NCBI RefSeq assembly: GCF_003019035.1
Contig: NZ_CP027447.1
Reading direction: 5' to 3' (one strand)
DNA length: 64,000 nucleotides
From: Escherichia coli
GTDB taxonomy: Bacteria > Pseudomonadota > Gammaproteobacteria > Enterobacterales > Enterobacteriaceae
The notes beneath the pieces were generated by a model that was not told the origin of the DNA, searched no databases, and saw only the letters and a program-made list of their open reading frames with translations. Position 1 is the first letter of the stretch; every line of letters begins with the position of its first letter. The position numbers and the translations under genes were made by a program. Below are positions 4,270 through 55,703 of the stretch, in pieces.

Positions 4270-4391
4270 CGCTACTTGCTCCTTGTGTGCTACGGTGTCA
4301 TTTATGATGAGGCATTGTATGGGACATTTTTTAAATATTAAGTTCCTTATATTTGAATAAAAAATGACTTTATCCATACATTGCCACTTTT

Positions 4392-17243: not shown

Positions 17244-20200
17244 ATGAGCGGAAAACCGGCGGCGCGTCAGGGCGACATGACGCAGTATGGCGGTAGCATT
17301 GTTCAGGGTTCAGCCGGGGTACGTATTGGTGCTCCCACCGGCGTGGCCTGTTCGGTGTGCCCCGGCGGGGTGACGTCCGGCCATCCGGTCAATCCGCTGC
17401 TCGGTGCGAAGGTCCTTCCCGGCGAAACCGACCTTGCCCTGCCCGGCCCGCTGCCGTTCATCCTCTCCCGCACCTACAGCAGTTACCGGACAAAAACGCC
17501 CGCGCCGGTGGGGAGCCTCGGCCCCGGCTGGAAAATGCCCGCGGATATCCGCTTACAGCTGCGCGATAACACACTGATACTCAGTGATAACGGCGGCAGG
17601 AGCCTGTATTTTGAGCACCTGTTTCCCGGTGAGGACGGTTACAGCCGCAGCGAGTCACTCTGGCTGGTGCGCGGCGGCGTGGCGAAACTGGATGAAGGTC
17701 ACCGGCTGGCCGCACTCTGGCAGGCGCTGCCGGAAGAGCTTCGCCTGAGTCCGCATCGTTATCTGGCGACGAACAGTCCGCAGGGGCCGTGGTGGGTACT
17801 CGGCTGGTGTGAGCAGGTGCCGGAGGCGGATGAGGTGCTGCCCGCGCCGCTGCCGCCGTACCGGGTACTGACCGGGCTGGTGGACCGCTTCGGGCGCACA
17901 CAGACGTTTCACCGTGAGGCTGGCGGTGAATTCAGCGGCGAAATCACCGGCGTGACGGATGGTGCCGGGCGTCACTTCCGGCTGGTACTGACCACGCAGG
18001 CGCTGCGGGCAGAAGAGGCCCGGCAGCAGGCCATTTCCGGCGGGACGGAACCGTCCGCTTTTCCTGATACCCTGCCGGACTACACGGAATATGGCCGGGA
18101 CAACGGCATCCGCCTGTCCGCCGTGTGGCTGACGCACGACCCGGAATATCCGGACAACCTGCCAGCCGCGCCGCTGGTACGCTATGGCTGGACGCCACGC
18201 GGCGAACTGGCGGCGGTGTATGACCGCAGCGGCACACAGGTGCGCAGCTTTACTTACGATGATAAATACCGGGGCCGGATGGTGGCGCACCGTCACACGG
18301 GCCGGCCGGAAATCCGTTACCGTTACGACAGCGACGGGCGGGTGACAGAACAGCTAAACCCGGCAGGCTTAAGCTACACGTATCAGTATGAGAAAGACCG
18401 CATCACCATCACCGACAGCCTGGACCGCCGTGAAGTCCTGCACACGCAGGGCGAAGGCGGGCTGAAGCGGGTGGTGAAAAAGGAACACGCGGACGGCAGC
18501 GTCACGCAGAGTCAGTTTGACGCGGTGGGCAGGCTTAAGGCACAGACGGATGCCGCAGGCCGGACGACTGAGTACAGCCCGGATGTGGTGACGGGACTCA
18601 TCACGCGCATCACCACGCCGGATGGCAGGGCATCGGCGTTTTACTATAACCACCACAGCCAGTTAACGTCAGCCACCTGGCCTGACGGGCTGGAAATACG
18701 CCGGGAATATGATGAATCCGGCCGTCTGATTCAGGAAACCGCCCCTGACGGCGATATCACCCGCTACCGTTATGATAATCCACACAGTGACTTCCCCTGC
18801 GCAACGGAGGATGCCACCGGCAGCCGGAAAACCATGACGTGGAGCCGTTACGGTCAGTTGCTGACCTTCACCGACTGTTCCGGCTACCAGACCCGTTATG
18901 ACCATGACCGCTTCGGGCAGATGACGGCGGTGCACCGCGAGGAAGGCCTGAGCCAGTGCCGCGCATACGACAGCCGTGGACAGTTAATTGCGGTGAAAGA
19001 CACGCAGGGCCATGAAACGCGGTATGAATACAACGCCGCCGGTGACCTGACCGCCGTCATTGCCCCGGACGGCAGCAGAAACGGGGCACAGTACGATGCG
19101 TGGGGAAAGGCCGTCCGTACCACGCAGGGCGGGCTGACCCGCAGTATGGAATACGATGCTGCAGGACGGGTCATCCGCCTGACAAACGAAAACGGCAGCC
19201 ACACCACCTTCCGTTACGATGTACTCGACCGGCTGATACAGGAAACCGGCTTTGACGGCCGCACACAGCGTTACCACCACGACCTGACCGGCAAACTTAT
19301 CCGCAGCGAGGATGAGGGGCTGGTCACCCACTGGCACTATGACGAAGCAGACCGCCTCACGCAGCGCACCGTGAATGGCGAAACCGCAGAGCGGTGGCAG
19401 TATGACGAACGCGGCTGGCTGACAGGCATCAGCCATCTCAGCGAAGGGCACCGGGTGACGGTGCATTACAGGTATGATGAGAAAGGCCGCCTGACCGGTG
19501 AGCGCCAGACGGTGCATCACCCGCAGACGGAAGCACTGCTCTGGCAGCATGAAACCAGACATGCGTACAATGCGCAGGGGCTGGCGAACCGCTGTATACC
19601 GGACAGCCTGCCCGCCGTGGAATGGCTGACTTATGGCAGTGGTTACCTGGCAGGGATGAAGCTGGGTGACTCGCCCCTGGTGGAGTACACCCGCGACCGC
19701 CTGCACCGGGAAACGCTGCGCAGCTTCGGCCGTTATGAACTCACCACCGCTTATACCCCTGCCGGGCAGTTACAGAGCCAGCACCTGAACAGCCTGCAGT
19801 ATGACCGCGATTACACCTGGAACGACAACGGCGAACTCATTCGCATCAGCAGCCCGCGCCAGACCCGGAGTTACAGCTACAGCGACTCCGGCAGGCTGAC
19901 CGGCGTTCACACCACCGCAGCGAACCTGGATATCCGCATCCCGTATGCCACGGACCCGGCAGGTAACCGCCTGCCCGACCCGGAGCTGCACCCGGACAGC
20001 ACCCTCAGCATGTGGCCGGATAACCGTATCGCCCGTGACGCGCACTATCTTTACCGGTATGACCGTCACGGCAGGCTGACGGAGAAAACCGACCTCATCC
20101 CGGAAGGGGTTATCCGCACGGATGATGAGCGGACTCACCGGTACCATTACGACAGCCGGCACCGGCTGGTGCACTACACGCGGACACAATATGCAGAGCC

Positions 20201-21443
20201 GCTGGTCGAAAGTCGCTATCTTTACGACCCGCTGGGCCGCAGGGTGGCAAAACGGGTGTGGCGGCGTGAACGGGACCTGACGGGCTGGATGTCGCTGTCA
20301 CGGAAACCGGAAGTGACCTGGTACGGCTGGGACGGCGACCGGCTGACCACGATACAGAACGACAGAACCCGCATCCAGACGATTTATCAGCCGGGGAGCT
20401 TCACGCCACTCATCAGGGTCGAAACTGCCACCGGTGAGCTGGCGAAAACGCAGCGCCGCAGCCTGGCGGATGCGCTTCAGCAGTCCGGCGGCGAAAACGG
20501 TGGCAGTGTGGTGTTCCCGCCGGTGCTGGTGCAGATGCTCGACCGGCTGGAAAGTGAAATCCTGGCTGACCGGGTGAGTGAGGAAAGCCGCCGCTGGCTG
20601 GCATCGTGCGGCCTGACGGTGGCGCAGATGCAAAACCAGATGGACCCGGTGTACACACCGGCGCGAAAAATCCACCTGTACCACTGCGACCATCGCGGCC
20701 TGCCGCTGGCGCTTGTCAGCACGGAAGGGGCAACAGAATGGTGCGCAGAATACGATGAGTGGGGCAACCTGCTGAATGAAGAGAACCCGCACCAGCTGCA
20801 GCAGCTCATCCGCCTGCCGGGTCAGCAGTATGATGAGGAGTCCGGCCTGTATTACAACCGCCACCGCTATTATGACCCGCTGCAGGGGCGGTATATCACT
20901 CAGGATCCTATTGGGCTGAAGGGGGGATGGAATTTTTATCAGTATCCGTTGAATCCGGTTCAGTATATAGATTCAATGGGACTGGCATCAAAATATGGAC
21001 ACTTAAATAATGGCGGATATGGAGCGAGACCCAACAAACCGCCTACGCCCGATCCAAGTAAATTGCCAGACATAGCGAAACAATTAAGACTGCCATATCC
21101 TATTGACCAGGCCAGTAGTGCGCCTAATGTTTTCAAAACATTCTTCAGAGCATTAAGCCCTTACGACTACACACTGTATTGCAGGAAGTGGGTAAAACCA
21201 AATCTGACTTGTACGCCACAGGATGATCCCCAGTATCCAGGGATGGATACAAAGACAGCAAGTGATTACCTGCCACAGACAAATTGGCCAACAACTCAAT
21301 TACCACCAGGATATACTTGTGCAGAACCCTATTTATTCCCAGACATTAATAAACCCGATGGGCCAGCAACAGCAGGGATAGATGATTTGGGTGAAATTTT
21401 AGCTAAAATGAAACAGAGAACATCGAGAGGAATAAGAAAATGA
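17244..21443 (+). CDS. rhsC: Rhs family protein RhsC (1399 aa): N-terminal PAAR-like region, YD-repeat core, PxxxxDPxGL cleavage motif, variable C-terminal toxin tip
   Basis: Repeated YD motifs (YRYDxxGRL), conserved core ending ...[17 protein letters not shown], then about 170 aa Cys/Pro-rich tip; upstream context ybfA as for rhsC. Confidence 0.9.
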
Positions 21444-22009
21444 AAAGAATTTTGTTCTTTTTGCTGATGATATTTGTTAGTTTTGGTGTTATAGCTGATT
21501 GCGAAACACAAGCTAAAGATCAAGATTGCTTTACCATTTTCACTAAGGGTACTATTTTTTCCGCGTTTCCTGTCTTAAATAATAAAACCATATGGAGATG
21601 GTATCAGAATGAGGACATAGGTGAGTATTATTGGCAAACAGAACTTGGTATATGTAAAAATAACAAATTCACACCAAGCGGGGCGAGACTCTTAATTCGC
21701 GTCGGATCACTACGCCTTAATGAAAATCATGCAACCAAAGGAACGTTGCAGGAGTTGCTAAATACAGCAGAAAAAACGGCGTTTCTCGGCGATCGGTTTA
21801 GAAGTTATATAAGAGCGGGTATCTATCAAAAAAAGAGCAGTGATCCAGCTCAGTTGTTGGCAGTCCTTGATAATTCAATCATGGTTAAATATTTTAAAGA
21901 TGAGAAGCCAACTTATGCTCGAATGACAGCACATCTCCCGAACAAAGATGAGTCTTACGAATGTTTAACAAAAGTACAGCATGAACTGCTTCGTAGTGAA
22001 GAAAAATAA
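21440..22009 (+). CDS. Putative RhsC immunity protein with signal peptide (189 aa)
   Basis: ATGA overlap with rhsC stop; N-terminal signal peptide [19 protein letters not shown]; AT-rich. Confidence 0.7.
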
Positions 22010-22177
22010 AATCTCTTCCTGAGAAAATAAATTAACTATTCGAAAAAATATGTTCTTAATGGGTATCCAGGTACACCAGAAGGTCGATTTGGAAAAATGG
22101 ATTCCGATGGTAAGAATATCATATATTCTGAATGTAATGTTTTACCCACAACTTTTGAGATTCGATAGGTGTAGAGC

Positions 22178-22480
22178 ATGAGAAACTCACTAATATTACT
22201 TATTATGATATTGTTTACAATATCACACTCAGTATTTGGAAAAGAAAATTCAGTGGAAATTTTAGTAAATAGTCGTGAAATGGCTTTGGAATTATCATAT
22301 GTTTACATTAAATATGTATACGGGAAAGAAAAAGCAGAATTTCAGAAACCATATAGTATTACAGATGACAATAATTGTTGGAAAATCGAGGGAAAACAAC
22401 CGAAGACGTTAGGAGGAAATTTTACAATACTAATAGCGAAAAAAGATGGGCAAGTGTTGAATGTAATACACACAAAATAA
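22178..22480 (+). CDS. Small secreted hypothetical protein, possible orphan immunity protein (100 aa)
   Basis: Signal peptide MRNSLILLIMILFTISHSVFG; AT-rich; preceded at about 22060-22170 by an in-frame peptide-like remnant (GYPGTPEGRFGKMDSDGKNIIYSECNV) lacking a start. Confidence 0.45.
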   Translation: MRNSLILLIMILFTISHSVFGKENSVEILVNSREMALELSYVYIKYVYGKEKAEFQKPYSITDDNNCWKIEGKQPKTLGGNFTILIAKKDGQVLNVIHTK

Positions 22481-22823
22481 TCCACTGTACAGTCGATTCA
22501 AATATTTTACCAAGGTGTGTTTTGTAACAATTTTGTGTACAATATGACTCTACATATCGACGAAAAAACCACTTGATTTGACAGGAACACATTCAAAAAA
22601 ATTTCTTTATTCATTTCAGGAGCGATTTTCATCTGTTACTTGAAGTATCTGTGAGATTAAGTGACTCCCCCTAACGTCGTACTAAATAGTAATTACTGTC
22701 CATACCGGGAGCAGTATTCGGCGCTCCCCACATGCAGCAGAATAACCGCATCAGCGAAGATGTATTGTATTTTTACTATCACAATGTGTACGGACGGTTT
22801 ATGGAAAAGAATGAAAATTAGAT

Positions 22824-22992
22824 ACGCGATGGGGCGGCAGGTTACACGGTTATCACTACGATAGCCAATACTGGCTGGTGCATTACCGCCGTGAACAATA
22901 GGACGCCGTACTGCTGGAAATTTCTTACCTTTATGACTCCCCGCGCCGCCGTATTGGGAAACGGGAAGCAATCAAGATGAGGCTGATATAAT
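22824..22992 (+). pseudogene. Degraded Rhs core remnant with in-frame stop
   Basis: Translation YHYDSQYWLVHYRREQ*DAVLLEISYLYDSPRRRIGKRE parallels RhsC core [45 protein letters not shown]. Confidence 0.65.
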
Positions 22993-23031
22993 GTGCGGAA
23001 TGCCTGAGTATTTTTAGAATAGGGGGGTAAT

Positions 23032-23433
23032 ATGTTTGATAGAATATATCTTGGTGATCGAGCAATAAAAAAAATTGAATTTTATTTATGGACTAAACAA
23101 ATTAGAATTCAGGTTAATTTAATCTCAAGGATAGCCTATGGTACAACAGAATGGAATTTTTATGATAATGAAGACTTAGAAGATGGTTATTTGGTATTTT
23201 CAGATGTTAGTTTCTTCAATATAACTCCTAATGGCTCTATTCCTGATGATTATATAATTTCAATAATTACAGATAATGTCAATGTTGAATATTTTGAATC
23301 AACTATAGTTGCAGTTGGACAAATTCCAAATACAAATTCTGGAGACATTGATAATATTGGTGAGTGTCAAATTTTCATCAGGTATAAACACAGCTGGATT
23401 GAGAATAAATTCAAAGAAAAAATAATTGAATAA
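23032..23433 (+). CDS. Hypothetical protein, possible orphan Rhs immunity protein (133 aa)
   Basis: AT-rich ORF with ATG start (gggggtaatATG) between two Rhs remnants; no signal peptide; no recognisable family. Confidence 0.4.
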   Translation: MFDRIYLGDRAIKKIEFYLWTKQIRIQVNLISRIAYGTTEWNFYDNEDLEDGYLVFSDVSFFNITPNGSIPDDYIISIITDNVNVEYFESTIVAVGQIPNTNSGDIDNIGECQIFIRYKHSWIENKFKEKIIE

Positions 23434-23548
23434 CCATGTTATGTATAGACATTTTAGATGGAACGAACCAGAGGAAGGCATGCCTCCGACTTGGGTTATA
23501 TGGGCACGGAGTTTTAGTGTAGTGAACTCAACGACGCAAACCGAATAA

Positions 23549-23739
23549 CCTGCCGCTGGCGCTTATCAGCACGGAAGGGGCAACAGAATGGTGCGCAGAA
23601 TACGATGAATGGGGCAACCTGCTGAATGAAGAGAACCCGCACCAGCTGCAGCAGCTCATCCGCCTGCCGGGTCAGCAGTATGATGAGGAGTCCGGCCTGT
23701 ATTACAACCGCCACCGCTATTATGACCCGCTGCAGGGGC
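23549..23739 (+). pseudogene. Orphan Rhs core 3' fragment, direct repeat of rhsC 20699-20889
   Basis: 191 bp with 2 mismatches versus rhsC (encodes [63 protein letters not shown]); no start codon; diverges after PLQG so the DPIGL motif and tip are lost. Confidence 0.85.
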
Positions 23740-23883
23740 CAGGGAAAGATCACGTAACGCTGCTTTTTTGTACTAAATAATTCGCATTTTATGTTTAAAA
23801 ATTGAGATATTCCTCATTACCTAAAGCTGTTTTTCATTGCTTATACATGATCAAATACTCCTTACATAATTAAGGAGAACAAA

Positions 23884-24732
23884 ATGGAACTTAAAAAATT
23901 GATGGAGCATATTTCTATTATCCCAGATTACAGACAAGCCTGGAAAGTGGAACATAAATTGTCTGATATTCTACTGTTGACTATTTGTGACGTTATTTCT
24001 GGTGCAGAAGGTTGGGAAGATATAGAGGATTTTGGGGAAACACATCTCGATTTTTTAAAACAATATGGTGATTTTGAAAATGGTATTCCTGTTCACGATA
24101 CCATTGCCAGAGTTGTATCCTGTATCAGTCCTGCAAAATTTCACGAGTGCTTTATTAACTGGATGCGTGACTGCCATTCTTCAGATGATAAAGACGTCAT
24201 TGCAATTGATGGAAAAACGCTCCGGCACTCTTATGACAAGAGTCGCCGCAAGGGAGCGATTCATGTCATTAGTGCGTTCTCAACAATGCACAGTCTGGTC
24301 ATCGGACAGATCAAGACGGATGAGAAATCCAATGAGATCACAGCTATCCCGGAACTTCTTAACATGCTGAATATTAAAGGAAAAATCATCACAACTGATG
24401 CGATGGGTTGCCAGAAAGATATTGCAGAGAAGATACAAAAACAGGGCGGTGATTATTTATTCGCTGTAAAAGGAAACCAGGGGCGGCTAAATAAAGCCTT
24501 CGAGGAAAAATTTCCGCTGAAAGAATTAAATAATCCAGAGCATGGCAGTTACGCAATGAGTGAAAAGAGTCACGGCAGAGAAGAAATCCGTCTTCATATT
24601 GTTTGCGATGTCCCTGATGAACTTATTGATTTCACGTTTGAATGGAAAGGGCAGCCATGGACAGAAAATATCTGGCGTCAGTCCTTGCGGGGAGCGTGCT
24701 TTCGTAATTTTGCCCTGCTACAACAGGATTAA
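23884..24732 (+). mobile_element. H-repeat-associated protein / ISAs1-family transposase, apparently C-terminally truncated (282 aa)
   Basis: [52 protein letters not shown] typical of E. coli H-rpt (YbfD/YhhI) proteins; shorter than the full-length family (~378 aa). Confidence 0.75.
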
Positions 24733-44840: not shown

Positions 44841-45709
44841 TGTCCATTTTAATTGATAAAAACACCAAGGTTATCTGCCAGGGCTTTACCGGTAGCCAGG
44901 GGACTTTCCACTCAGAACAGGCTATTGCATACGGCACTAAAATGGTTGGCGGCGTAACCCCAGGTAAAGGCGGCACCACCCACCTCGGCCTGCCAGTGTT
45001 CAACACCGTGCGTGAAGCTGTTGCTGCTACTGGCGCTACCGCTTCTGTTATCTACGTACCAGCACCGTTCTGCAAAGACTCCATTCTGGAAGCTATTGAT
45101 GCAGGCATCAAACTGATTATCACCATCACTGAAGGCATCCCGACGCTGGATATGCTGACCGTGAAGGTGAAACTGGATGAAGCGGGCGTTCGCATGATCG
45201 GCCCGAACTGCCCGGGCGTTATCACTCCGGGTGAATGCAAAATCGGTATCCAGCCTGGTCACATTCACAAACCGGGTAAAGTGGGTATCGTTTCCCGTTC
45301 CGGTACACTGACCTATGAAGCGGTTAAACAGACCACGGATTACGGTTTCGGTCAGTCGACCTGTGTTGGTATCGGCGGCGACCCGATCCCTGGCTCTAAC
45401 TTTATCGACATCCTCGAAATGTTCGAAAAAGATCCGCAGACCGAAGCGATCGTGATGATCGGTGAGATCGGCGGTAGCGCTGAAGAAGAAGCGGCTGCGT
45501 ACATCAAAGAGCACGTTACCAAGCCTGTTGTGGGTTACATCGCTGGTGTGACTGCGCCGAAAGGCAAACGTATGGGCCACGCGGGTGCGATCATTGCCGG
45601 TGGGAAAGGGACTGCGGATGAGAAATTCGCTGCTCTGGAAGCCGCAGGCGTGAAAACCGTTCGCAGCCTGGCTGATATCGGTGAAGCACTGAAAACTGTT
45701 CTGAAATAA
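44840..45709 (+). CDS. sucD: Succinyl-CoA synthetase alpha subunit (289 aa)
   Basis: [45 protein letters not shown]; ATGA-type overlap with sucC. Confidence 0.97.
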
Positions 45710-45711
45710 AT

Positions 45712-45810
45712 ATCTGTAATAAGAAATAGCCCTCGCCGCTTCCCTCTACAGGAATGGCGAAGGGCTGTCGGTTTCGACATGGTTGGCCATCATATGATGG
45801 CCTTTTTTAT
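45712..45810 (+). ncRNA. sdhX: 3'UTR-derived sRNA SdhX (RybD) with intrinsic terminator
   Basis: Sequence immediately after sucD stop ending in hairpin ggttggccatcatatgatggcc plus T-run, the known location of SdhX. Confidence 0.6.
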
Positions 45811-47204
45811 GCCTTAAACGTTAACCACGGTCGAAATCTGACCGCAGGTTGAATTAATCCGGCTTCTTGTTGGGCTTCGATAACCGGACCAATATCTTTA
45901 TAAGCCGCTGGCGCTTCTTCAAGACGTCGTTCTTCGCGCAATGTGACGCATTGCCACGGCAGCGTTGACTCTTCAGTCGCGCTTGAGCGCATGGCCTGCC
46001 GACGCTGGCTGCGTCCTGCTCCGTGACTGCAAGACCACAGCCACTCCGGGTTGCCGCAACCAACCGCAAGCCACGAATAATCACCCATGGAACCGGGGAT
46101 TAACGCCAGATCGCCCGCGCGTGCCGGTGTTGCACCTTTGCGATGAATATTCATTTCATGCTCGTGAAGGATGATGTTATGCGGCACATCCACCACCAGA
46201 TGTGAATCATCCTGATGAAATAAATCGGCAAAACATACGCGAACCATTTCCGCAATGGTCACGCGATTTAACCATGCGTAACGCGCCGCCATTCCCATCG
46301 CTTGTAGATATTCCTCCGCCAGTCCGCCTGCCAGGCCATATAACCCGCTTTGTGGATGTTTATGTCCGGTGGGCCATTCAGCACGGGCGCGATCCATCCA
46401 GCGTCTTCCGACGTAAAAGCCAACATCTCGCGATCCACTGTGGATCATCACCACAATATCGCCCGTTTTCAGCCCTTGTTGCCAGGCAACATGGCGATCA
46501 ACCACGCTATCAACCACCTGAAGTTCAATAAAATGATTACCTGAACCCGGCGTACCAAGACAAGGATCGCGGAGTAATGGGCGGTCCGTTACCAGCAGGG
46601 CGGGTGGGGCATAACGCGAATGACTGTTATGCTCGTTAAGCCCAATGCAGCGGTCAATCTCTTGTACCATTCGGGGGATATTCGTGCGTGTCCAGAGACC
46701 TGCTGATGGCAAGGCTGACATGCACTCTGCCGGTCCGTCATCAAAAAGCGCGGTGAACGCCTGTGCGGATAACGGAACATCGCGCTCATTTTGCAGTAGC
46801 ACTTGCGTTAACCGCTGAGCGATGACGTCTTTATTCGCTTCGGCTTGCTCAAGTGTTAATCCGGTCGTCAGCAGCCGCATGCCACAAGAAATATCGGTGC
46901 CGATGGCCGCAGGAATGACTAAATCCGGCGTAGAGGCGACTACCGCGCCAACGGGGACGCCATTGCCGGGATGAAAATCTGGCGTCGCACAGGTCTGGCG
47001 TACGTAACCTGGATGGTCTGGTATCTTCACTTCTGCAAAATCAAGCAGTTGTGTCACTGCTTTTTCTTCCAGCGGCAGTTCGTCCGGCAGCAGTACGTGG
47101 GCACTGGCTCCTGATGGACGACATAATGAAACAATATTGTTGGCGCGGGAAAGTTGGATCCCTTTGCGCAGAAAGGCTTTATCAAGCCTTGAAAGATGAT
47201 GCAT
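45807..47204 (-). CDS. RtcB-family RNA ligase paralog (465 aa), first gene of accessory island
   Basis: RtcB motifs DISCGMR, PGSGNHFIE, MIHSGSRDVG, PGSMGDYSW, SCSHGAGR; about 60-aa N-terminal extension relative to RtcB; 3' end overlaps sdhX terminator. Confidence 0.8.
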   Translation of the reverse strand: MHHLSRLDKAFLRKGIQLSRANNIVSLCRPSGASAHVLLPDELPLEEKAVTQLLDFAEVKIPDHPGYVRQTCATPDFHPGNGVPVGAVVASTPDLVIPAAIGTDISCGMRLLTTGLTLEQAEANKDVIAQRLTQVLLQNERDVPLSAQAFTALFDDGPAECMSALPSAGLWTRTNIPRMVQEIDRCIGLNEHNSHSRYAPPALLVTDRPLLRDPCLGTPGSGNHFIELQVVDSVVDRHVAWQQGLKTGDIVVMIHSGSRDVGFYVGRRWMDRARAEWPTGHKHPQSGLYGLAGGLAEEYLQAMGMAARYAWLNRVTIAEMVRVCFADLFHQDDSHLVVDVPHNIILHEHEMNIHRKGATPARAGDLALIPGSMGDYSWLAVGCGNPEWLWSCSHGAGRSQRRQAMRSSATEESTLPWQCVTLREERRLEEAPAAYKDIGPVIEAQQEAGLIQPAVRFRPWLTFKA

Positions 47205-47961
47205 AACGCTGTCCTGAAATATAGACGTTAAACAACCCCCTTTATTGCGAGGGTAATTTTGTCTTTCCGGTCAGCAGCCAGCAAAAGGGAAAGAAAACGC
47301 GCGTAGTGTATGCAGCAATGACGATCAATACAAGATAAAAAAGACTATTAACAAACGGGGGTGTTATAAAAGGGGTCAGTTATCGACGCCAGATTGTAAA
47401 ATATGAAAAATGATAATTTCCAGTGGATATATTTTAAGATTTATTTTTACGCCTGTTTTTACGTCGGGTAACTATCCATTGTTGCCGTTTTTTAATTATC
47501 AAAAGTGGGATGAAAACAAATGGATTATTAATGATAATAAAACATGTCTTTATGACGAATAATGAAGATCTTATTTTAAATATCATTGTGTTATGCGCAC
47601 TGTGTGGTGTCGGAACACCTGTTGTTACGCTTATATCTGGTCGTTATTAACGCATTTCTCATATAATTAAATTACTGACATCTTGCAATCTCATCATATT
47701 CATATGTTCAAATTAGAAAATATTTTGCCAACAATATCACTTTTTCGACAAGTTAAATTAAGCATATTGAATTCGCATACAACGCGTTGGTGGTTTTGAA
47801 TTTATATTCATAGTGAATATACCACGACAAACAATATTCACTAAATGAATTAATAATACAAAATGATAAACGGGAATTATAGAAACCGTTTCTATATTCA
47901 TTCGTTCGTTTTTTCTGACCGATTACAGCGTTTAATTTTATCAAGTAACAGGAGAAGATTC
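47205..47961. promoter_or_regulatory. Long AT-rich divergent intergenic region (RtcB-like / hutU promoters)
   Basis: About 760 bp of very AT-rich DNA without ORFs >= 60 aa; only short ORFs such as 47531..47650 (39 aa, hydrophobic). Confidence 0.5.
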
Positions 47962-49659
47962 ATGAGTAAGCCTTCAGACCCGCGTATTGATACCAGCCGT
48001 GTAATCCATGCGCCACACGGTACGCAGCTGCACTGCAAAAACTGGCAGATCGAAGCTGCCTATCGGATGTTGCAGAACAACCTTGATCCCGACGTTGCCG
48101 AAAATCCACAGCATCTGGTGGTGTATGGTGGTATTGGTCGTGCGGCACGTAACTGGGAGTGTTTTGACAAAATCCTTGAATCACTGAAAAATCTGGAAGC
48201 TGATGAGTCACTGCTGGTTCAGTCCGGTAAACCCGTAGGCGTGTTTAAAACGCATACCGATGCGCCGCGCGTATTGATTGCCAACTCTAACCTGGTACCG
48301 CAATGGGCCAACTGGGATCATTTCAATGAACTGGATCGTAAAGGTCTGTTCATGTACGGCCAGATGACCGCTGGCTCGTGGATCTACATCGGTAGTCAGG
48401 GCATTGTGCAGGGAACGTTCGAAACCTTTGTTGAAGCGGGTCGTCAGCACTACAACAATTCGCTGAGTGGAAAATGGATCCTGACCGCAGGGCTAGGTGG
48501 TATGGGCGGTGCACAACCGCTGGCGGCGACTCTGGCGGGGGCGTGCTCATTAAATATCGAGTGCCAGCAAAGTAGCATCGACTTCCGTCTGCGTACCCGT
48601 TATGTCGATAAACAAGCGAAAGATCTTGATGATGCACTGGCGCTGATTAAATACCACACCGAACGCAAAGAAGCCGTTTCTATCGCGCTGCTGGGCAATG
48701 CGGCGGAAATTGTTCCTGAGCTGGTGAAACGTGCACGTCAGGGATCGATCAAGCCGGATCTGGTGACCGACCAGACCTCCGCTCACGATCTGGTCTATGG
48801 TTACCTGCCAATGGGCTGGAGCGTAGAACAATGGCGTGCTGCACAGCAGGATCCACAACAGCACGCCAGACTGCAAAAAGAAGCGGCGCAGAGTTGCGTG
48901 GCGCATGTTCAGGGGATGCTGGACTTCCAGGCGATGGGGATCCCGGTTGTCGATTATGGCAACAACATCCGCCAGGTGGCCTTCAACGAAGGTCTGCAAA
49001 ATGCCTTTGATTTCCCGGGCTTTGTTCCGGCTTATATTCGTCCAATGTTTTGTGAAGGCAAAGGTCCATTCCGTTGGGTGGCGCTGTCTGGCGACCCGGA
49101 AGATATCTATAAAACTGATGCCAAAATTAAAGAGTTGTTCCCCAATAACGTACTGACGCATCGCTGGCTGGATATGGCGCGCGAGCGCATTGCCTTCCAG
49201 GGACTTCCTTCACGTATTTGCTGGCTGGGGCTTGGTGAGCGTCACCTGGCGGGGCTGGCATTCAACGAAATGGTGCGCAACGGTGAACTAAAAGCACCGA
49301 TTGTGATTGGGCGCGATCATCTTGATACCGGTTCTGTCGCCAGCCCGAACCGCGAAACCGAAAGCATGCTTGATGGCAGTGATGCGGTTTCTGACTGGCC
49401 GTTGCTCAACGGTTTGCTCAACACTGCAGGGGGAGCAACGTGGGTATCCCTGCATCATGGCGGCGGCGTCGGGATGGGGTATTCACAACACGCCGGGATG
49501 GTTATTGTTGCCGATGGTAGCGAAGAAGCCGAAAAACGTCTGGCGCGTGTGCTGGTGAATGACTGTGCGTCCGGGGTTATGCGTCATGCGGATGCGGGTT
49601 ATGAGGCGGCAATTGAATGTGCCAAAAACTATGGTCTGAAATTACCGATGATTCGCTAA
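47962..49659 (+). CDS. hutU: Urocanate hydratase (565 aa)
   Basis: ORF 47863..49659 with start [10 protein letters not shown] preceded by GGAG; canonical urocanase sequence throughout ([53 protein letters not shown]). Confidence 0.9.
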
Positions 49660-49822
49660 ATATTAACGCCGTCATTTAATATTTGCGCTAATACAGGCGG
49701 AGAATAATTCGCCTGTATAACAATAATTATCAAAAAATATTTTTACATCGTCGAGAGAAATATCTCCCGACCCTCTATTGCTGTTTCAAAAAATGACCTC
49801 TCATTATGCAGGAGACTTTTTC

Positions 49823-51232
49823 ATGGAATCAAGCAGCCCTATCCGCAGTAAAAAGCCAGTATTAGAATCAAATACGATTAACGCCGTTCCTGAGTCTGCT
49901 CGCCACGGCTCGCCATCCAGTCAGTTTACTTTATGGCTAAGTGCTAACTTACAAATTACCGCTGTGGTGGACGGCGCGTTAGCGATTATTTTTGGCTCCG
50001 AAGCCATGTCAGCAATAATTGGTTTATTAATCGGTAATATTATTGGTGGTGCAGTAATGGCATTGCACTCGTCGCAGGGGGCAAAGCTGGGATTACCCCA
50101 GATGATCTCCAGTCGTATCCGCTTTGGCGTTAAAGGAGCGGCGCTACCGTTACTGATGGTGATTATTATGTACCTTGGATTTGCCGCGACGGGTACAGTA
50201 TTATCCGGTCAGGCGATTAACCGGATATTTGGTTTCGAATCGGCATCGACCGGAATTATTATTTTCGGCATGCTGACCGCGATGATCGCATTGGTCGGTT
50301 ATAAACTTATTCACGTCGTTGGCCGTGTTGCAGGGATATTAAGTATTCTGGGGTTTATTTACCTGGCTACTCAACTTAGCGGTCACTACGATGTGGCTGC
50401 GGCATTTGGTCAAAAGCCATTTAGTCTGTCGGTCTTTTTATTAACGATTGCTCTCTCTGCCGGATGGCAATTAACGTTTGCCCCTTACGCCTCTGATTAT
50501 TCCCGCTATTTACCCTCTGATACGCCAGCAAAATCAATCTTCTTTGCCACCTTTCTGGGAACCACGCTTGGCGCGCAATGTGCCATGACGTTTGGCGTGC
50601 TTGTTGCGGCCTGTGGTGCTAACTTCCTGAAGGATCAGGTTGGTTTTATGGGTGAGTTAGCCGGACCCACCTTCGCCATTCTGATTTATACGGTGATTGT
50701 TTGCGGCAAACTGACGGTGAACTGTTTGAATGCCTACGGTGGCTTTATGTCGATTCTGGCGACCGTCAGCGCCTTTAATAATCGCAGTCAGGTTTCACAG
50801 CGTGTTCGTGCTGCCTACGTTGTAGGGTTCGTGCTGTTGTCGATGGTCGTCGCGCTGGCGGCAAGCGCAGATTTTTTGAATAATTTCAAAAACTTCGTTC
50901 TGCTGCTGTTGACGGTATTTGTGCCGTGGAGCGCCATTAATCTCATCGACTACTACTTCATCTCACAAGGTAAAACCGATATTCCGGCACTTTATACCCC
51001 GGAAGGGCGTTATGGCGCGTATAACAAAACCGCTTTGACGTGCTATGGCGTAGGCGTGTTGGTGCAGATCCCCTTCCTGAATCAAAAACTGTATCAGGGA
51101 CCCATTTCTGTCCTGATGGATGGGGCGGATATCTCCTGGATTGTCGGCTTGTTAATTACCGCCGTTATCTATTACCCGTGGGCCAAACGCACCACCTGCG
51201 TTCCTGCTTATACGATTTATCCCGAGTCTTAA
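49823..51232 (+). CDS. NCS1-family (cytosine/purine/allantoin-type) permease, candidate urocanate/substrate importer (469 aa)
   Basis: Polytopic membrane protein; start MESSSPIRSKK preceded by GGAG at 8 nt; inside the hut-like operon. Confidence 0.7.
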   Translation: MESSSPIRSKKPVLESNTINAVPESARHGSPSSQFTLWLSANLQITAVVDGALAIIFGSEAMSAIIGLLIGNIIGGAVMALHSSQGAKLGLPQMISSRIRFGVKGAALPLLMVIIMYLGFAATGTVLSGQAINRIFGFESASTGIIIFGMLTAMIALVGYKLIHVVGRVAGILSILGFIYLATQLSGHYDVAAAFGQKPFSLSVFLLTIALSAGWQLTFAPYASDYSRYLPSDTPAKSIFFATFLGTTLGAQCAMTFGVLVAACGANFLKDQVGFMGELAGPTFAILIYTVIVCGKLTVNCLNAYGGFMSILATVSAFNNRSQVSQRVRAAYVVGFVLLSMVVALAASADFLNNFKNFVLLLLTVFVPWSAINLIDYYFISQGKTDIPALYTPEGRYGAYNKTALTCYGVGVLVQIPFLNQKLYQGPISVLMDGADISWIVGLLITAVIYYPWAKRTTCVPAYTIYPES

Positions 51233-51233
51233 T

Positions 51234-51824
51234 ATGGAACCGATGCTGATTTCTGCAATGGATAAGCCGCTGCAACCGTGGCGCAACGGCGGGGGGGTTA
51301 CCCGACAGCTGCTTGCCTGGCCCGATGATGAAAACTGGTTGTTGCGCATCAGTATGGCGAATGTCAGTCAGGATGGCCCTTTTTCAGCGTGGCCTGGCGT
51401 GGTTCGTGGCCTCGCGATCCTCGACGGGGAAGGGGTGAAGCTAACGTTTGCCGATTCGATCATCAACCTGCAACGTCACGATCCCGCCTTAATTTTCCCT
51501 GGAGAAGCTATGCCTGATTGCCAGCTGCTGGGCGGCGGGGTTCGCGATCTGAATGTTATGGCGCGGGAAGGCGATACGGGGATGTTGCGGGTGCAAAGTG
51601 CCGTTGACTGGCTTCCTCCGTCACTTGCGCAAGCGGGCCTGTTCACGCTGTGTGAAGGGGAGTGGATAAGCGGCAAGAAAAGGGTGTTTGTCGCGGCAAA
51701 TATGTTGTTATGGCTGGTTGCACCTGATGGCAGGCCCTGGCGTTTCGTACCACGGAAGAAAGTCTCCGTCGGTGAGCTGGCGGGCTGGTGGCTTTATTAT
51801 CTACGAGGGGAAAAATCCTTATGA
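51234..51824 (+). CDS. hutD: HutD-family protein (196 aa)
   Basis: Motif [12 protein letters not shown] typical of HutD/Ves family; 4-nt overlap with hutI start. Confidence 0.7.
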
Positions 51825-53032
51825 GTGCATTAACGCTCTGGCGAAATACCACGCTGGCGACGCTTTCCGCTAACGATTGGGGAGTGATTGAAAAGGGGGC
51901 ATTAATCAGCCGTGGCGACACTATTGTCTGGCTTGGCAAGGCCACGCAGATCCCTCGCGAACTGACGGCTGACATTACAGAGGAACACGACCTGCAGGGT
52001 AAGTTGCTGACACCCGGTCTGGTGGATTGCCATACGCATCTGGTGTATGGCGGCCAGCGGGCGAATGAGTTTGAGATGCGGCTGCAAGGCGTGGCTTATG
52101 AAGATATCGCCAGAGCGGGCGGCGGGATCTTATCTACCGTCAATGCTACGCGGGCGGCCAGCGAAACACAACTGTTTGAACTGGCGGCGCAGCGACTACA
52201 AAACTGGTTGCGTGAAGGCGTCAGTACGCTTGAAATCAAATCGGGTTATGGCTTAACGCTGGAAGATGAAGCGCGTTGTTTACGCGTGATCCGCCGCTTG
52301 CAGCAATCTACCGGGTTACATATTCAGTCTACGTTTCTCGGGGCGCACAGCCTGCCGCCAGAGTTTGCCGGGCGCAGTGATGATTACATTACGGCGCTTT
52401 GCGACTGGATGTGCGTGTTGCATGAACAGGGGCTGATTGATGCAGTTGATGCTTTTTGTGAAAACATCGCCTTTACTCCAGAGCAGGTACGGCGCGTTTT
52501 CAGTAAAGCGCAAAGCTATGGATTACCTGTAAAACTGCATGCCGAACAGCTTTCTGACCAGCAAGGCGCGGCGCTGGCAGCGGCGTTTTCTGCACTCTCC
52601 TGCGATCATCTGGAGTACCTGAGCGAGTCGGGGATCGCCGCCATGAAAGCGGCTGGAACAGTGGCGGTTTTGCTTCCCGGTGCTTATTACTTCCTGCGCG
52701 AAACCCATCTGCCGCCGATTGTCGCTCTGCGGGCCGCAGGTGTGCCGATTGCTATCTCCACGGACCATAATCCCGGAACGTCTCCCAATATGTCATTGCC
52801 ATTGATGATCAATATGGCCTGTACGCTGTTTCGCATGACGCCGCTGGAAGCCGTTCAGGGCGTTACGCGTAATGCGGCAAAGGCACTTGGACTTATTGAC
52901 CGGGGTGAACTTGCACCGGGATTACGGGCGGATATGGCGGTCTGGGATCTTAATCATCCACGTGAACTGGCTTACTGGTTTGGGCATCAGCCTTGCCAGG
53001 GGCTTATTGTCGGCGGAAAAAGGAGTTGGTAA
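51821..53032 (+). CDS. hutI: Imidazolonepropionase (403 aa)
   Basis: ORF 51788..53032 with start MSALTLWRN; amidohydrolase metal-binding motifs ([29 protein letters not shown]). Confidence 0.85.
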
Positions 53033-53982
53033 TGAAGCAAACATTTTTGCCGTGGAGTGGGCGTGTTGACTCGCAGGAAACCGGCATCAGCACTCGCTGG
53101 CATCAGCATGTGCAACCGTTTAGTGAACAAAGCCACGGCGATTGTACGCTGATTGGTTTTGCCGTTGATGACGGAGTGCAACGTAATGGTGGGCGAGCGG
53201 GTGCAGCAGGCGGACCGGGCGCGTTGCGCAGCATGTTGGGAAATATGCCAGTGCTCTGTGAAGGCGCTATTTTCGATATGGGCGATGTACAAAGCGAGGA
53301 CCACGCGCTGGAATCCGCACAAAACCGTCTGGCGGCTAACGTATCTACAGCCATTGCGCGCGGCAGTTTACCGGTGGTTCTGGGGGGCGGTCATGAAGTG
53401 GCGTGGGGAACATTTCAGGGGATTATGCAGTCGCGTCCGGATATTCAGCGGTTACTGATTGTGAACCTTGACGCGCATTTTGATTTACGGATGGCGGAAC
53501 AAGCCAATTCAGGTACGCCGTTTCGTCAGATGCAAGAGTGGAACGCGCAGCATGGCAAACCGTTTCATTATCGCGTGCTGGGAATAAGTCGTTTTGCCAA
53601 TACTCAGGCGTTATTTGATCGCGCTGACTGTCTCGGTGTGCGTTATTGGCTGGACGAATCTCTGCAATTTGAACGTGGTTTGCATGAGATCGCTAATGCG
53701 CTCTCGGCAGATATTCAGGCTTGTGACGCCATTTATTTAACGATTTGTCTCGATGTTTTACCAGGTTATCAGGCGCCCGGTGTTTCTGCTCCATCACCGT
53801 TAGGCGTGCCGTTAAATATTACTGAAGCCATTGTGAATTTAATCGCCGGTAGCGAGAAGTTGATTGCTGCGGATATTGCCGAACTTAACCCGGACCTGGA
53901 CCGCGATAATTTAACTGCGAAAGTTGCCGCTCGCCTGGTGACCAGTATTGTCCGGCGGGGGAAAACAGATAGAACAAATTAA
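53032..53982 (+). CDS. hutG: Formimidoylglutamase (316 aa)
   Basis: ORF 52993..53982 with start MKQTF after AAGGAG; arginase-family motifs GGGHEVAWG, NLDAHFDLR, SGTPFRQ, IYLTICLDVLP, VSAPSPLGVPL. Confidence 0.85.
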   Translation: MKQTFLPWSGRVDSQETGISTRWHQHVQPFSEQSHGDCTLIGFAVDDGVQRNGGRAGAAGGPGALRSMLGNMPVLCEGAIFDMGDVQSEDHALESAQNRLAANVSTAIARGSLPVVLGGGHEVAWGTFQGIMQSRPDIQRLLIVNLDAHFDLRMAEQANSGTPFRQMQEWNAQHGKPFHYRVLGISRFANTQALFDRADCLGVRYWLDESLQFERGLHEIANALSADIQACDAIYLTICLDVLPGYQAPGVSAPSPLGVPLNITEAIVNLIAGSEKLIAADIAELNPDLDRDNLTAKVAARLVTSIVRRGKTDRTN

Positions 53983-54032
53983 AACGTTGTCGCAGTAACC
54001 CGTTGTTAAACTCATCATGATAAGGAAACACA

Positions 54033-55703
54033 ATGAAAGGATTGATACGAAGAGTCACTGTCACCGTTGTGCTCTGGAGCGTTTGCTCCATCGCGATGGC
54101 AAAATCAACCATTACGCTGGATGGCGAACATCTCTCTATTGACCAGGCCTGGTCAATTGCATTAGGTGATAACGGCGTCAAAATCGCGTCGAACGCCATG
54201 GAGCGCATGGAAAAAAGTTATGATCTGGTGATGACTGCCGCGCATTCAGGTACGCCTGTTTATGGCTTAACCGTGGGCGTGGGGCTAAATAAAGATCAGC
54301 CCATATTTGATGCCAAAGGAAATTTAACGCCTGAGGTGATTGACGCATCGAAAAAATTTAATGCTGCCGCGCTGCGCGCCCATTCTGCGGGCGTCGGTCC
54401 GATGTTGCCGGATTATCTTGCCCGTCTCTCAATGGTGTTACGTTTAAATACTATGTTGCATGGGCAAACCGGCGCGCAGCCTTATATTGCCGAGTTGTAT
54501 GCCGAGTTTATTAATCGAGGCGTTACGCCGTTAATTCCGGCGCGGGGAAGTATCGGCGCAGCGGATATTATGCTCGCTTCACACGTTGGTCTGGTGATGA
54601 TGGGCGAGTGGAAAGCGCGGGTTAATGGCGTGGAAATGAGTGGTGGCGATGCGCTTGTGAAAGTGGGGCTTAAACCACTGGTCCCGCAGGGTAAAGATAT
54701 GCTGGCGATTTTATCGAACAACAGCGTCGGGACAGCCTACGCTATCGAAGCTGTTCGTTCGGCACGTCAGTTGCTGAATGTCAGCCCGGTGGTTTTCGCT
54801 ATGAGTCTGGAAGCGTTGAATGGTAACGTCGCACCAGTACTGCCGCAGTCAATTGCCGTGCGTCCTTTCCCGCAGTTGGCTGACTCTGCAAAAGAGATTC
54901 GCGATGCGTTAAACGGTTCATATTTATGGCATAAAGATGACGAACGTGCATTGCAAGATCCGTTATCGTTCAGAACTACGGTATATACCATTGCTGAATC
55001 AGTACGCGCTTTGCATGATGCTGAAGAGATCATAACCGTACAAATCAACAGTTCCGATGATAACCCAGCAACGGTGCTAAATGCTGACAAGGCGTATCAG
55101 GACTCCAGTCAGGTCGCGCAATATTTTGTTAAAGATGGCGCAGTCAGCGGCGGGATCTTCCCGACGGCGAACTTCGAATCGTTACCGGTTGCGCTTGCCA
55201 CTCAGCGTCTGACCGTGGCGTTGGTACATGTTTCGCATAACAGTATGCGTCGCTCGCTGCACCTGGAAGATGAGCACTTTACCGGTTTAACGCGCTTCCT
55301 GTCGGCACCCGGTAATAAAGGTCACGGCTTCGGTTCATTACATATCCCGTTTGTTGCGCTGCATGCGGAAAATGTCGATCTCGCTAACCCGGTTTCTTTC
55401 GATATTCAACCGGTAGCCGGAGGCATTGAAGATACGGGTGCCAATAACGACCACGCGGCGAGAAAATTGAAACAGGTTGTCGATAATCTGAACGTGATTT
55501 ATGGCATTGAACTGATGCATTCCGCACAGGCTCTCGATTTACGGTTGCAGGCCGATCCACAACTGGCATTAGGGAAATCCACCAAAGCAATGTTTACCGA
55601 ATACAGAAAAGTCGTGCCGTTTGTCGACCAGGATCGGGTCTTTACCCCAGATATTGCAGCTTCGCAAAAATTCTTAGAAGGATATGCTATAAATCAAAAA
55701 TAA
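54033..55703 (+). CDS. HAL/PAL-superfamily protein lacking the MIO-forming Ala-Ser-Gly triad, with predicted N-terminal signal peptide (556 aa); candidate MIO-independent lyase, not a canonical histidase
   Basis: Aligns along its length with histidine ammonia-lyase (PARGSIGAADIMLASH vs HAL GSVGASGDLAPLAH; SNNS vs NGTQ); N-terminus MKGLIRRVTVTVVLWSVCSIAMA-KS is Sec-signal-like with AxA site; AAGGAA RBS 5 nt upstream. Confidence 0.75.
   Translation: MKGLIRRVTVTVVLWSVCSIAMAKSTITLDGEHLSIDQAWSIALGDNGVKIASNAMERMEKSYDLVMTAAHSGTPVYGLTVGVGLNKDQPIFDAKGNLTPEVIDASKKFNAAALRAHSAGVGPMLPDYLARLSMVLRLNTMLHGQTGAQPYIAELYAEFINRGVTPLIPARGSIGAADIMLASHVGLVMMGEWKARVNGVEMSGGDALVKVGLKPLVPQGKDMLAILSNNSVGTAYAIEAVRSARQLLNVSPVVFAMSLEALNGNVAPVLPQSIAVRPFPQLADSAKEIRDALNGSYLWHKDDERALQDPLSFRTTVYTIAESVRALHDAEEIITVQINSSDDNPATVLNADKAYQDSSQVAQYFVKDGAVSGGIFPTANFESLPVALATQRLTVALVHVSHNSMRRSLHLEDEHFTGLTRFLSAPGNKGHGFGSLHIPFVALHAENVDLANPVSFDIQPVAGGIEDTGANNDHAARKLKQVVDNLNVIYGIELMHSAQALDLRLQADPQLALGKSTKAMFTEYRKVVPFVDQDRVFTPDIAASQKFLEGYAINQK

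Follow-up and report, generated by a model that had tools for sequence, protein, structure and literature searches.

A structured leader RNA probably gates translation of a stand-alone RtcB-family RNA ligase carried by some Escherichia coli strains

Introduction

RtcB is the universal 3'-phosphate RNA ligase, a GTP/Mn2+-dependent enzyme that seals breaks between an RNA 3'-phosphate or 2',3'-cyclic-phosphate end and a 5'-OH end. To our knowledge, only two bacterial settings of RtcB are understood, namely RtcR-controlled rtcBA (tRNA repair) and RtcB2-PrfH (ribosome repair). Here, we analyze a stretch of 64,000 nucleotides of Escherichia coli DNA (NCBI RefSeq assembly GCF_003019035.1, contig NZ_CP027447.1; referred to as the window), which carries a gene for a 465-amino-acid RtcB-family protein on its minus strand. 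On one side, the gene meets sdhX, a small RNA (sRNA) from the 3' untranslated region (UTR) of sucD; on the other, it faces a histidine utilization (hut) operon. We find that this rtcB paralog has an intact active site, belongs to a large clade lacking a conserved protein partner and is preceded by a conserved, structured 5' leader RNA, which most likely gates translation initiation. We put the probability of this overall reading, that is, an intact RNA-repair ligase of a stand-alone clade whose translation is gated by the leader, at roughly 0.65. The leader is the most informative feature of the locus and was missed by the first-pass annotation, an earlier reading of the same DNA that had been drawn to the contact between rtcB and the sdhX terminator.

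Results

The window encodes an intact RtcB-family ligase

The annotation of the E. coli SCU-301 chromosome, which is 100% identical to the searched part of the window (45600-47900), lists the 465-amino-acid product as 'RtcB family protein' (WP_096987208.1). The Pfam RtcB family (PF01139) matched residues 63-464 on model positions 7-425/426 with E = 2e-95. The ligase motifs that the first-pass annotation had pointed out on the minus strand (PGSGNHF, HSGSR, PGSMG and SCSHGAGR) are all present in the translation, where they form part of four intact blocks, GTPGSGNHF, MIHSGSRDVG, LIPGSMGDYS and WSCSHGAGR. The first-pass start coordinate of 45776 had to be corrected, as it falls in the sdhX seed/hairpin; the 3' end of the gene is at 45807.

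The best matches among solved structures were Thermus thermophilus TTHA1785 and Pyrococcus horikoshii RtcB (E ~1e-42 to 1e-43). In a residue-level alignment, the metal ligands D104, C107, H224, H255 and H342 fell on P. horikoshii D95, C98, H203, H234 and H329, respectively, and the nucleophile H394 within SCSHGAGR corresponds to the guanylylated histidine, H404 in P. horikoshii. The GTP/guanine contacts N223, F225, E227, S372, Y435 and K464 are kept (reference residues in P. horikoshii: N202, F204, E206, Y451 and K480), as are D76/H78, H255/R259, H342-N343 and R398 in comparison with solved RtcB structures. The listed catalytic residues, including the metal-binding histidines and cysteine on which the earlier assignment hinged, are invariant across a 17-member alignment of the clade. 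Because the active site is intact, we infer that the protein is a catalytically competent ligase.

The gene is under purifying selection, with ratios of nonsynonymous to synonymous substitution rates (dN/dS) of 0.13-0.20 between alleles within E. coli and of 0.07 in the comparison with an 86%-identical homolog. Its GC content is unremarkable (53.6%, compared with 51.5% for the window). A chimeric query carrying K-12 rtcB gave a second match in SCU-301; the 465-amino-acid gene alone gave one match per genome. As SCU-301 thus also has a canonical rtcB, the gene is a true paralog, in agreement with the first-pass annotation. The PADLOC defense-system models contained no family match to the paralog at E <= 0.01. 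The previously suggested link to the repair of ribotoxin damage is plausible by family membership; the protein scores below the curated cut-off of the PrfH-associated RtcB2 model, however, and has neither RtcR nor sigma-54 control.

A conserved leader RNA precedes rtcB

A 757-bp intergenic stretch with a GC content of 34% (47205-47961) separates rtcB from the divergent hut operon. The ~110 nt directly above rtcB are nearly identical in the differently placed gene of O169 genomes and in homologs of 86% and 82% identity, while the other intergenic DNA could not be aligned. The 93-nt leader itself is 89% identical to that of the 86%-identical homolog (contig L093), compared with 57% at third positions of the coding sequence and 53% in the DNA farther upstream.

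The same parts recur in the same order across taxa: a sigma-70 promoter, a stem-loop (P1), a second hairpin (P2), which is made of an outer and an inner helix and in many cases ends in a U-rich tail, and finally a stretch complementary to GCUGCUG, a 7-nt element in the P1 loop. GCUGCUG was invariant in 30 aligned leaders and occurred upstream of rtcB in 72 of 80 related loci. Its complement sits within positions -12 to +9 relative to the start codon and, in cyanobacteria, is made up of the start codon and the first codons (AUGCAGCAGCC). The P1 stem, on the other hand, takes many forms through compensatory change, such as UCUUUCC/GGAAAGA, CCUUCCU/AGGAAGG, UUUCCUG/CAGGAAA, CCCUCU/GGAGGG, GAGACG/UGUCUC and AAAAGAUU/AGUCUUUU. 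In Pectobacterium and Gilliamella, the P2-equivalent hairpin is terminator-like.

Promoters are clear at the expected place in Gilliamella and Pectobacterium (TTTACA-17-TAGAAT, 10/12 matches), and the E. coli leader promoter is predicted to be of the sigma-70 type as well. A GC-rich discriminator, CCGCGC, follows the predicted -10 element in most taxa (leaders L002, L004, L016, L041, L045-L047, L051, L054 and others); the E. coli version reads ACGCGCG (window 47298-47304). GC-rich discriminators are a known feature of promoters under negative ppGpp/DksA control, for example rRNA and tRNA promoters. A 28-codon open reading frame (ORF) with a TTG start (window 47242-47328, minus strand) runs over leader and promoter; it begins before the predicted transcription start and is probably spurious. 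Coordinates of all features at the locus are given in Table 1.

Table 1. Features at the rtcB locus, in coordinates of the window. MFE, minimum free energy.
Feature	Position	Strand	Basis and remarks
rtcB paralog, coding sequence	45807..47204	-	ORF and translation; 465 amino acids plus TAA; ATG at 47204
Structured 5' leader RNA of rtcB	47205..47297	-	Covariance-model hit 47199-47297 (model R2, 30 bits, E = 1.9e-6)
P1 5' strand UCUUUCC	47288..47294	-	Pairs with 47262-47268
GCUGCUG in P1 loop	47272..47278	-	Invariant element; complementary to the start-codon region or next to it
P1 3' strand GGAAAGA	47262..47268	-	Overlaps 5' strand of outer P2 helix (AGAC)
P2 inner hairpin CCCUC-GCAAUAAA-GGGGG	47236..47254	-	In MFE fold; followed by U-rich stretch
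Long-range helix, 3' strand CAGGACAGCG	47207..47216	-	Contains Shine-Dalgarno AGGA; just 5' of ATG
Putative weak sigma-70 promoter	47305..47333	-	Read by eye; -35 TTGTAT 47328-47333, 17-nt spacer, -10 TACACT 47305-47310
sdhX (sucD 3' UTR sRNA)	45710..45808	+	Sequence, terminator scan, published seed
SdhX seed UUCGACAUGGU	45773-45783	+	Seed as published in PMC6393394
sdhX terminator	hairpin 45785-45802, T-tract 45803-45808	+	Terminator scan
Recombination junction, sdhX flank/rtcB island	45807..45813	.	Five-way alignment; includes rtcB stop codon

Leader helices covary across lineages

Aligning the raw leaders with MAFFT followed by RNAalifold predicted no pairs because loop lengths differ among leaders, and iterated covariance-model alignment was used in its place. 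A first model (R1), built from six Burkholderiaceae leaders, gave 20 matches (E <= 0.012), every one of them at the 5' end of an rtcB gene. In the alignment of these 20 leaders, 89.5% of cells were paired, compared with 45-57% in slid controls, compensatory changes were seen at 15/15 pairs and none of 500 shuffles reached the observed percentage paired or the covariation score. A second model (R2), built from the 20 matches, was run on both strands of 1.07 Mb. Its 38 best matches (E <= 0.014) all lay directly upstream of rtcB homologs on the coding strand, the window leader among them, with the first off-target match at E = 0.037. Over 31 leaders, pairing amounted to 90% for P1 (compensatory changes at 6/6 pairs), 80% for P2a (3/3), 91% for P2b (6/6) and 86% for a long-range helix between GCUGCUG and its complement. 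Taken together, the cells were 86-90% paired, compared with 33-59% in slid controls. The reverse strand scored far below the leader strand.

The long-range helix is extended in covarying fashion, lineage by lineage (UGAUGCUG/CAGCAUCA, CGCUGCUG/CAGCAGCG, UUGGCUGCU/AGCAGCCAA, GUGCUGCU/AGCGGCAC, and CUGCUGAAU/AUUCAGCAG against CUGCUGAUG/UAUCAGCAG). In the MFE folds predicted for the E. coli leader and for the Burkholderia leader, this helix covers the ribosome-binding region; in E. coli, GCUG.CC pairs with GG.CAGC, taking in the Shine-Dalgarno sequence AGGA. In addition, the P1 3' strand can alternatively pair, with some covariation, with a segment located after P2, which suggests mutually exclusive conformations.

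R2 gave no match at the K-12 rtcBA locus or beside the canonical rtcB of Gilliamella. Cyanobacterial, Xanthomonadales and P. chlororaphis-type leader variants went undetected by R2 and were identified solely by per-sequence parse; a MAFFT alignment of the cyanobacterial leaders was left out of the pair counts, since Nostocales and Oscillatoriales are out of register by one column in it. A metagenome scan with a P1 descriptor of 22 bases yielded a single true leader (L100, followed by an rtcB N-terminus) and two independent chance matches inside ORFs, a result close to chance expectation that adds little. Rfam 15 was compared with window 45000-48500 and with the leaders of L004, L016, L017 and L062, and nothing matched at E <= 1. 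A literature search found no RNA motif upstream of rtcB, and the main motif-discovery papers, supplements not covered, do not mention RtcB. The leader RNA thus appears to be undescribed so far.

Could the conserved element act as DNA, as a transcription-factor operator, or be an independent sRNA that ends at the P2 hairpin? Covariation argues against an operator: the stems change in sequence yet stay paired, G-U pairs included, which is typical of RNA and unlike operator half-sites, and the covariance score drops strongly on the reverse strand. Moreover, a complementary partner is found at the start codon in every lineage, even inside the first codons in cyanobacteria. Such readings would fit the invariance of GCTGCTG as a sequence, rather than merely as a complement, the fact that P1 is an inverted repeat at the DNA level too, and the resemblance of P2 plus U-tract in Gilliamella and Pectobacterium to an intrinsic terminator, which would release an RNA of ~70 nt. 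Taking both sides together, we consider an operator or independent sRNA unlikely.

The paralog represents a large stand-alone clade

More than 2000 relatives were returned by a protein search with the paralog (E <= 1e-20). Nearly all of the best 120 were ~465 amino acids long and 58-67% identical over their full length; these 120 came from Pseudomonas (including P. aeruginosa), Variovorax, Ralstonia, Burkholderia, Chitinivorax and others. Scanning one genome per species yielded 80 loci and added Gilliamella, Snodgrassella, Xenorhabdus, Pectobacterium, Comamonadaceae, Massilia, Xanthomonadales, many cyanobacteria and myxobacteria. The ~465-amino-acid clade is large and distinct, covers beta- and gammaproteobacteria as well as cyanobacteria, and is of archaeal-like length.

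The genes beside rtcB vary by taxon in Pseudomonas, Ralstonia and the other contigs inspected. All-against-all BLASTP and clustering of the ORFs from 84 loci revealed no conserved protein partner; the recurring neighbors were only generic (LysR regulators, histidine kinases, ABC ATPases, SDR enzymes and similar). The neighborhood comparison thereby bears out the stand-alone status assigned at first pass, as does the SCU-301 annotation, which lists no rtcA, rtcR, rsr or prfH partner across the window. A sigma-54 consensus was absent upstream of the window gene and in front of all 84 related 465-type loci, and no Rfam family, Y RNA included, reached its gathering score across the 64 kb.

Two candidate associations were examined and rejected. 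The first was a link to RtcR: rtcR lies 1-2 kb away in three Gilliamella loci, but other Gilliamella loci are without it, and its sigma-54 promoter drives a separate operon consisting of a tRNA-like gene, an SPFH gene and a canonical 408-amino-acid rtcB. In the canonical rtc operon of Gilliamella contig L017 (4123-4361), the RtcR-side sigma-54 promoter (TGGCACGCTTTTCGCA, 4346-4361, minus strand) precedes the tRNA-like gene, which ARAGORN called as tRNA-Gly with the unusual anticodon ACC (Rfam tRNA, 51.8 bits); the SPFH-domain gene and then the 408-amino-acid rtcB lie downstream. The second was a functional tie to histidine utilization. In the window, the hut operon (47962-55703) comprises hutU, a permease gene, hutD, hutI, hutG and hutH and is without the hutC repressor gene. 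The divergent rtcB-hut block is also found with the 86%-identical homolog in the unrelated contig L093, but hut is absent beside the O169-type rtcB, the 82%-identical homolog and in the other contigs inspected. The rtcB-hut pairing is therefore treated as synteny by descent.

Elsewhere in the window (~17244-23900), an RHS element contains a core gene that is annotated as frameshifted in SCU-301. It is followed by small genes of the immunity type (NTF2-fold immunity protein, DUF6258) and by a C-terminal RHS fragment, next to a truncated ISAs1 transposase.

In E. coli, rtcB is an accessory gene that decays in some lineages

Among 5426 complete E. coli genomes, 296 were found to carry the paralog, and at least 80% of the gene is covered in 289 of these copies. 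Roughly half of the rtcB-positive genomes (144 of ~290) share the sucD-rtcB-hut arrangement of the window, while in two others that were inspected, the gene lies downstream of mngB, far from sdhX. O169:H41-type genomes carry rtcB behind mngB and beside a LysR gene. O157-like genomes have the same sdhX junction as the window, but all that is left of rtcB there is a decayed remnant, marked by an indel and internal deletions. In E. coli, a variable island between sucD and cydA (hut operon plus methylaspartate pathway) carries the accessory gene rtcB at its edge.

Three kinds of damaged alleles were seen. The remnant in the O157-like strain PNUSAE145743 (L008 12255-12776) has a 1-nt insertion as well as internal deletions and sits between sucD/sdhX and a LysR gene; R2 detected no leader at the O157-like remnant locus. 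In strain VE-T9 (L092 5946-7142), an IS1 insertion truncates the 5' end of rtcB, and the part of the island from LysR to DUF4387 is also removed. Finally, O169:H41-type alleles have ATT in place of ATG at the conserved start (L009 9391-9393; L091 7343-7345), with the leader and the remaining ORF intact, and translation may therefore be strongly reduced.

These cases, together with the limited presence among E. coli genomes and the AT-rich region upstream of the gene, raise the question of whether rtcB is a silent or decaying island passenger in E. coli that has no current function. We regard this as improbable given the low dN/dS among E. coli alleles, the intact state of every catalytic residue, the near-complete length of 289 of the 296 copies and the leader, which holds its 89% identity over a divergence with a synonymous distance (dS) of ~1.1.

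The contact with sdhX is probably incidental

The sucD gene ends at 45709, and sdhX follows directly. Rfam gave no match to sdhX in window 45000-48500; the seed sequence UUCGACAUGGU has been published (PMC6393394). The terminator-hairpin loop reads AUAU in the window (45792) and GUAU in K-12-like, O157-like and O169 genomes, with stem and T-tract unchanged.

According to the first-pass annotation, the last codons and the stop of rtcB lie inside the sdhX T-tract. The overlap is real, but smaller: positions 45807-45809, which give the TAA stop on the complementary strand, are the last two T's of the tract plus A45809, and the last sense codon, GCA (45810-45812), lies outside. K-12-like flanks have a G at the position matching A45809. 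In a five-way alignment that took in four locus architectures, identity between the window and K-12-like sequences runs through TTTTTT(A/G)TGC and ends at ~45812, where identity to the mngB-linked (O169:H41-type) rtcB allele begins (CCTTAAAC); the last rtcB codon is GCA in the window and GGG in that allele. This puts the breakpoint inside the last rtcB codon and the island junction at the sdhX 3' end, as had been claimed for the junction.

In K-12-like genomes, the gene order is sucD-mngR-mngA-mngB, and the stop codon of the convergent mngR lies 4 nt beyond the same T-tract; a convergent gene abutting the sdhX terminator is hence the normal state of this locus. The rtcB-sdhX contact looks incidental, apparently a by-product of the island recombination that replaced mngRAB.

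The contact would matter if convergent transcription or translation of rtcB modulated termination, 3' end formation or stability of SdhX in this strain. This would be in line with the two shared stop-codon nucleotides and with the G-to-A change in the hairpin loop relative to K-12-like strains. Moreover, no U-tract follows the hairpin on the minus strand, which makes antisense read-through from rtcB into sdhX possible, as it is from mngR. We nonetheless hold such modulation to be very improbable. Seed, stem and T-tract of sdhX are all intact, the mngR gene of K-12-like genomes ends 4 nt past the same tract, and about half of the rtcB-positive E. coli lack the sucD-rtcB arrangement, the two inspected genomes carrying the gene behind mngB. 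In other taxa, the homologs have unrelated 3' neighbors. The overlap that first drew attention to the locus is thus probably an incidental junction, and the interest of the finding rests on the widely conserved leader, which probably controls rtcB expression.

Discussion

A model for translational gating by the leader

The findings are best explained by a self-contained module in which rtcB would be transcribed from its own sigma-70-type promoter. GCUGCUG, displayed in the P1 loop, would pair with the Shine-Dalgarno/start-codon region, and the resulting long-range helix would sequester the initiation region and repress translation. The P1 3' strand could alternatively pair downstream of P2. 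In some taxa, namely in gammaproteobacterial versions, premature termination at P2 may act besides translational gating.

Several observations weigh against this model or qualify its evidence. Judged by consensus, the E. coli promoter is weak, and a promoter scan did not flag it. In fixed alignment columns, the long-range helix shows one-sided changes only, because its GCUGCUG strand is invariant, and its covariation was taken from register-fitted flanks; likewise, the alignments behind the pair counts were fitted to the model structure. The E. coli leader has a short long-range helix of 4-5 bp plus 2 bp, and the z-score of its MFE is just -1.6. The asymmetry between G-U and A-C cells, used as a strand test, is modest (59 versus 35 cells). 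Finally, the O157-like remnant, the IS1 truncation and the ATT start indicate that the gene is dispensable in E. coli.

Candidate recognizers of the invariant loop

The invariance of GCUGCUG as a sequence goes beyond what complementarity would require and suggests sequence-specific recognition. RtcB itself might bind its own leader, which would amount to autoregulation. An endoribonuclease cutting at GCU, the reported specificity of MqsR-type enzymes, is another possible recognizer. A third possibility is pairing of the P1 loop with 16S rRNA: GCUGCUG is complementary to the two universal CAGCAG segments at E. coli positions 352-357 and 519-524, the second match reaching 525 (16S rRNA: L104 72-1613). 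Complementarity extends to 11 nt at the 530 loop for cyanobacterial loops (CGCGGCUGCUG), to 10 nt for one Xanthomonadaceae loop (L041) and to 10 nt at position 348 for a Massilia loop, which, by a rough estimate, is only marginally above chance.

Taken one step further, the leader could be a sensor of RNA damage, in which cleavage of the P1 loop frees the start site and RtcB reseals the leader, thereby restoring repression. GCUGCUG would offer two GCU sites to a nuclease, and an uncut loop would keep the ribosome-binding region paired. P1 could hold the cut ends together, much like a broken anticodon stem-loop, and so allow resealing. Exposed CAGCAG segments of 16S rRNA might also compete for GCUGCUG and likewise free the start. 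The RtcR CARF domain senses damaged tRNA ends, and if the damage-sensing scheme were true, RNA repair would be under an autoregulatory riboregulator of the 'cut-and-reseal' kind, an all-RNA functional analog of RtcR CARF sensing. At present, we think this scheme doubtful and prefer translational gating by the long-range helix as such.

Significance

The clade defined here is found in some E. coli and P. aeruginosa strains, in Burkholderia and Variovorax, in Gilliamella and Snodgrassella, which are bee-gut symbionts, and in cyanobacteria. Lacking a protein partner in 84 loci, it bears a conserved leader in which an invariant element of 7 nt is complementary to the start region of the same gene. 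This leader provides an experimental handle, in tractable E. coli, on the inducing signal and the target RNA of an orphan RNA-repair enzyme.

Comparison with known RtcB systems

The canonical K-12 RtcB (RtcB1) shares the Pfam family, the catalytic motifs and the nucleophile histidine with the paralog, and presumably also its 3'-phosphate/5'-OH chemistry. The two proteins are, however, only 30% identical, with many gaps, and differ in length (408 versus 465 amino acids). In K-12, rtcBA is under the control of RtcR and sigma-54, whereas the paralog has neither rtcA nor rtcR nor a sigma-54 promoter; conversely, the structured leader upstream of the paralog has no match at the K-12 rtcBA locus. 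In the Salmonella-type rtc operon, rsr and Y-RNA-like genes are present, whereas the window contains no annotated rsr.

RtcB2-PrfH is likewise an accessory RtcB system of some E. coli, and the C-terminal half of the paralog matches the corresponding model TIGR03073 (release_rtcB). The score of 168.2 bits is nevertheless below the curated cut-off of 271.8, the same being true for PRK09588 (205.1 bits versus a cut-off of 407), and the paralog is ~90 amino acids longer than the RtcB2-type model (379 positions). RtcB2 has prfH as its partner; none is found beside the paralog, in the window or in the 84 related loci.

Archaeal and Thermus RtcB (PH1602, 1UC2/4DWQ; TTHA1785, 2EPG) are of similar length, align with the paralog from ~41-60 to the C-terminal lysine and have all metal, GMP-histidine and guanine-contact residues in common with it. 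They are nonetheless distant in sequence and belong to another clade. The archaeal enzyme acts in tRNA splicing with archease, whereas no archease or intron context was seen around the paralog. RtcB sequence space has been divided into eight clusters, of which only 1a, 1b and 2 have assigned substrates (Tian et al. 2022, PMC9304027), and the ~465-amino-acid clade is a candidate for one of the clusters lacking such an assignment.

With riboswitch platforms and translational-repressor leaders, the rtcB leader shares its position in a same-strand 5' UTR, covarying helices, apparently mutually exclusive pairings and a predicted sequestration of the ribosome-binding region. It differs from known examples in that it falls into no Rfam family and has a core element that is invariant in sequence. 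While the two known bacterial RtcB modules depend on protein-based control, the ~465-amino-acid clade would thus appear to entrust the expression of its ligase to an RNA leader.

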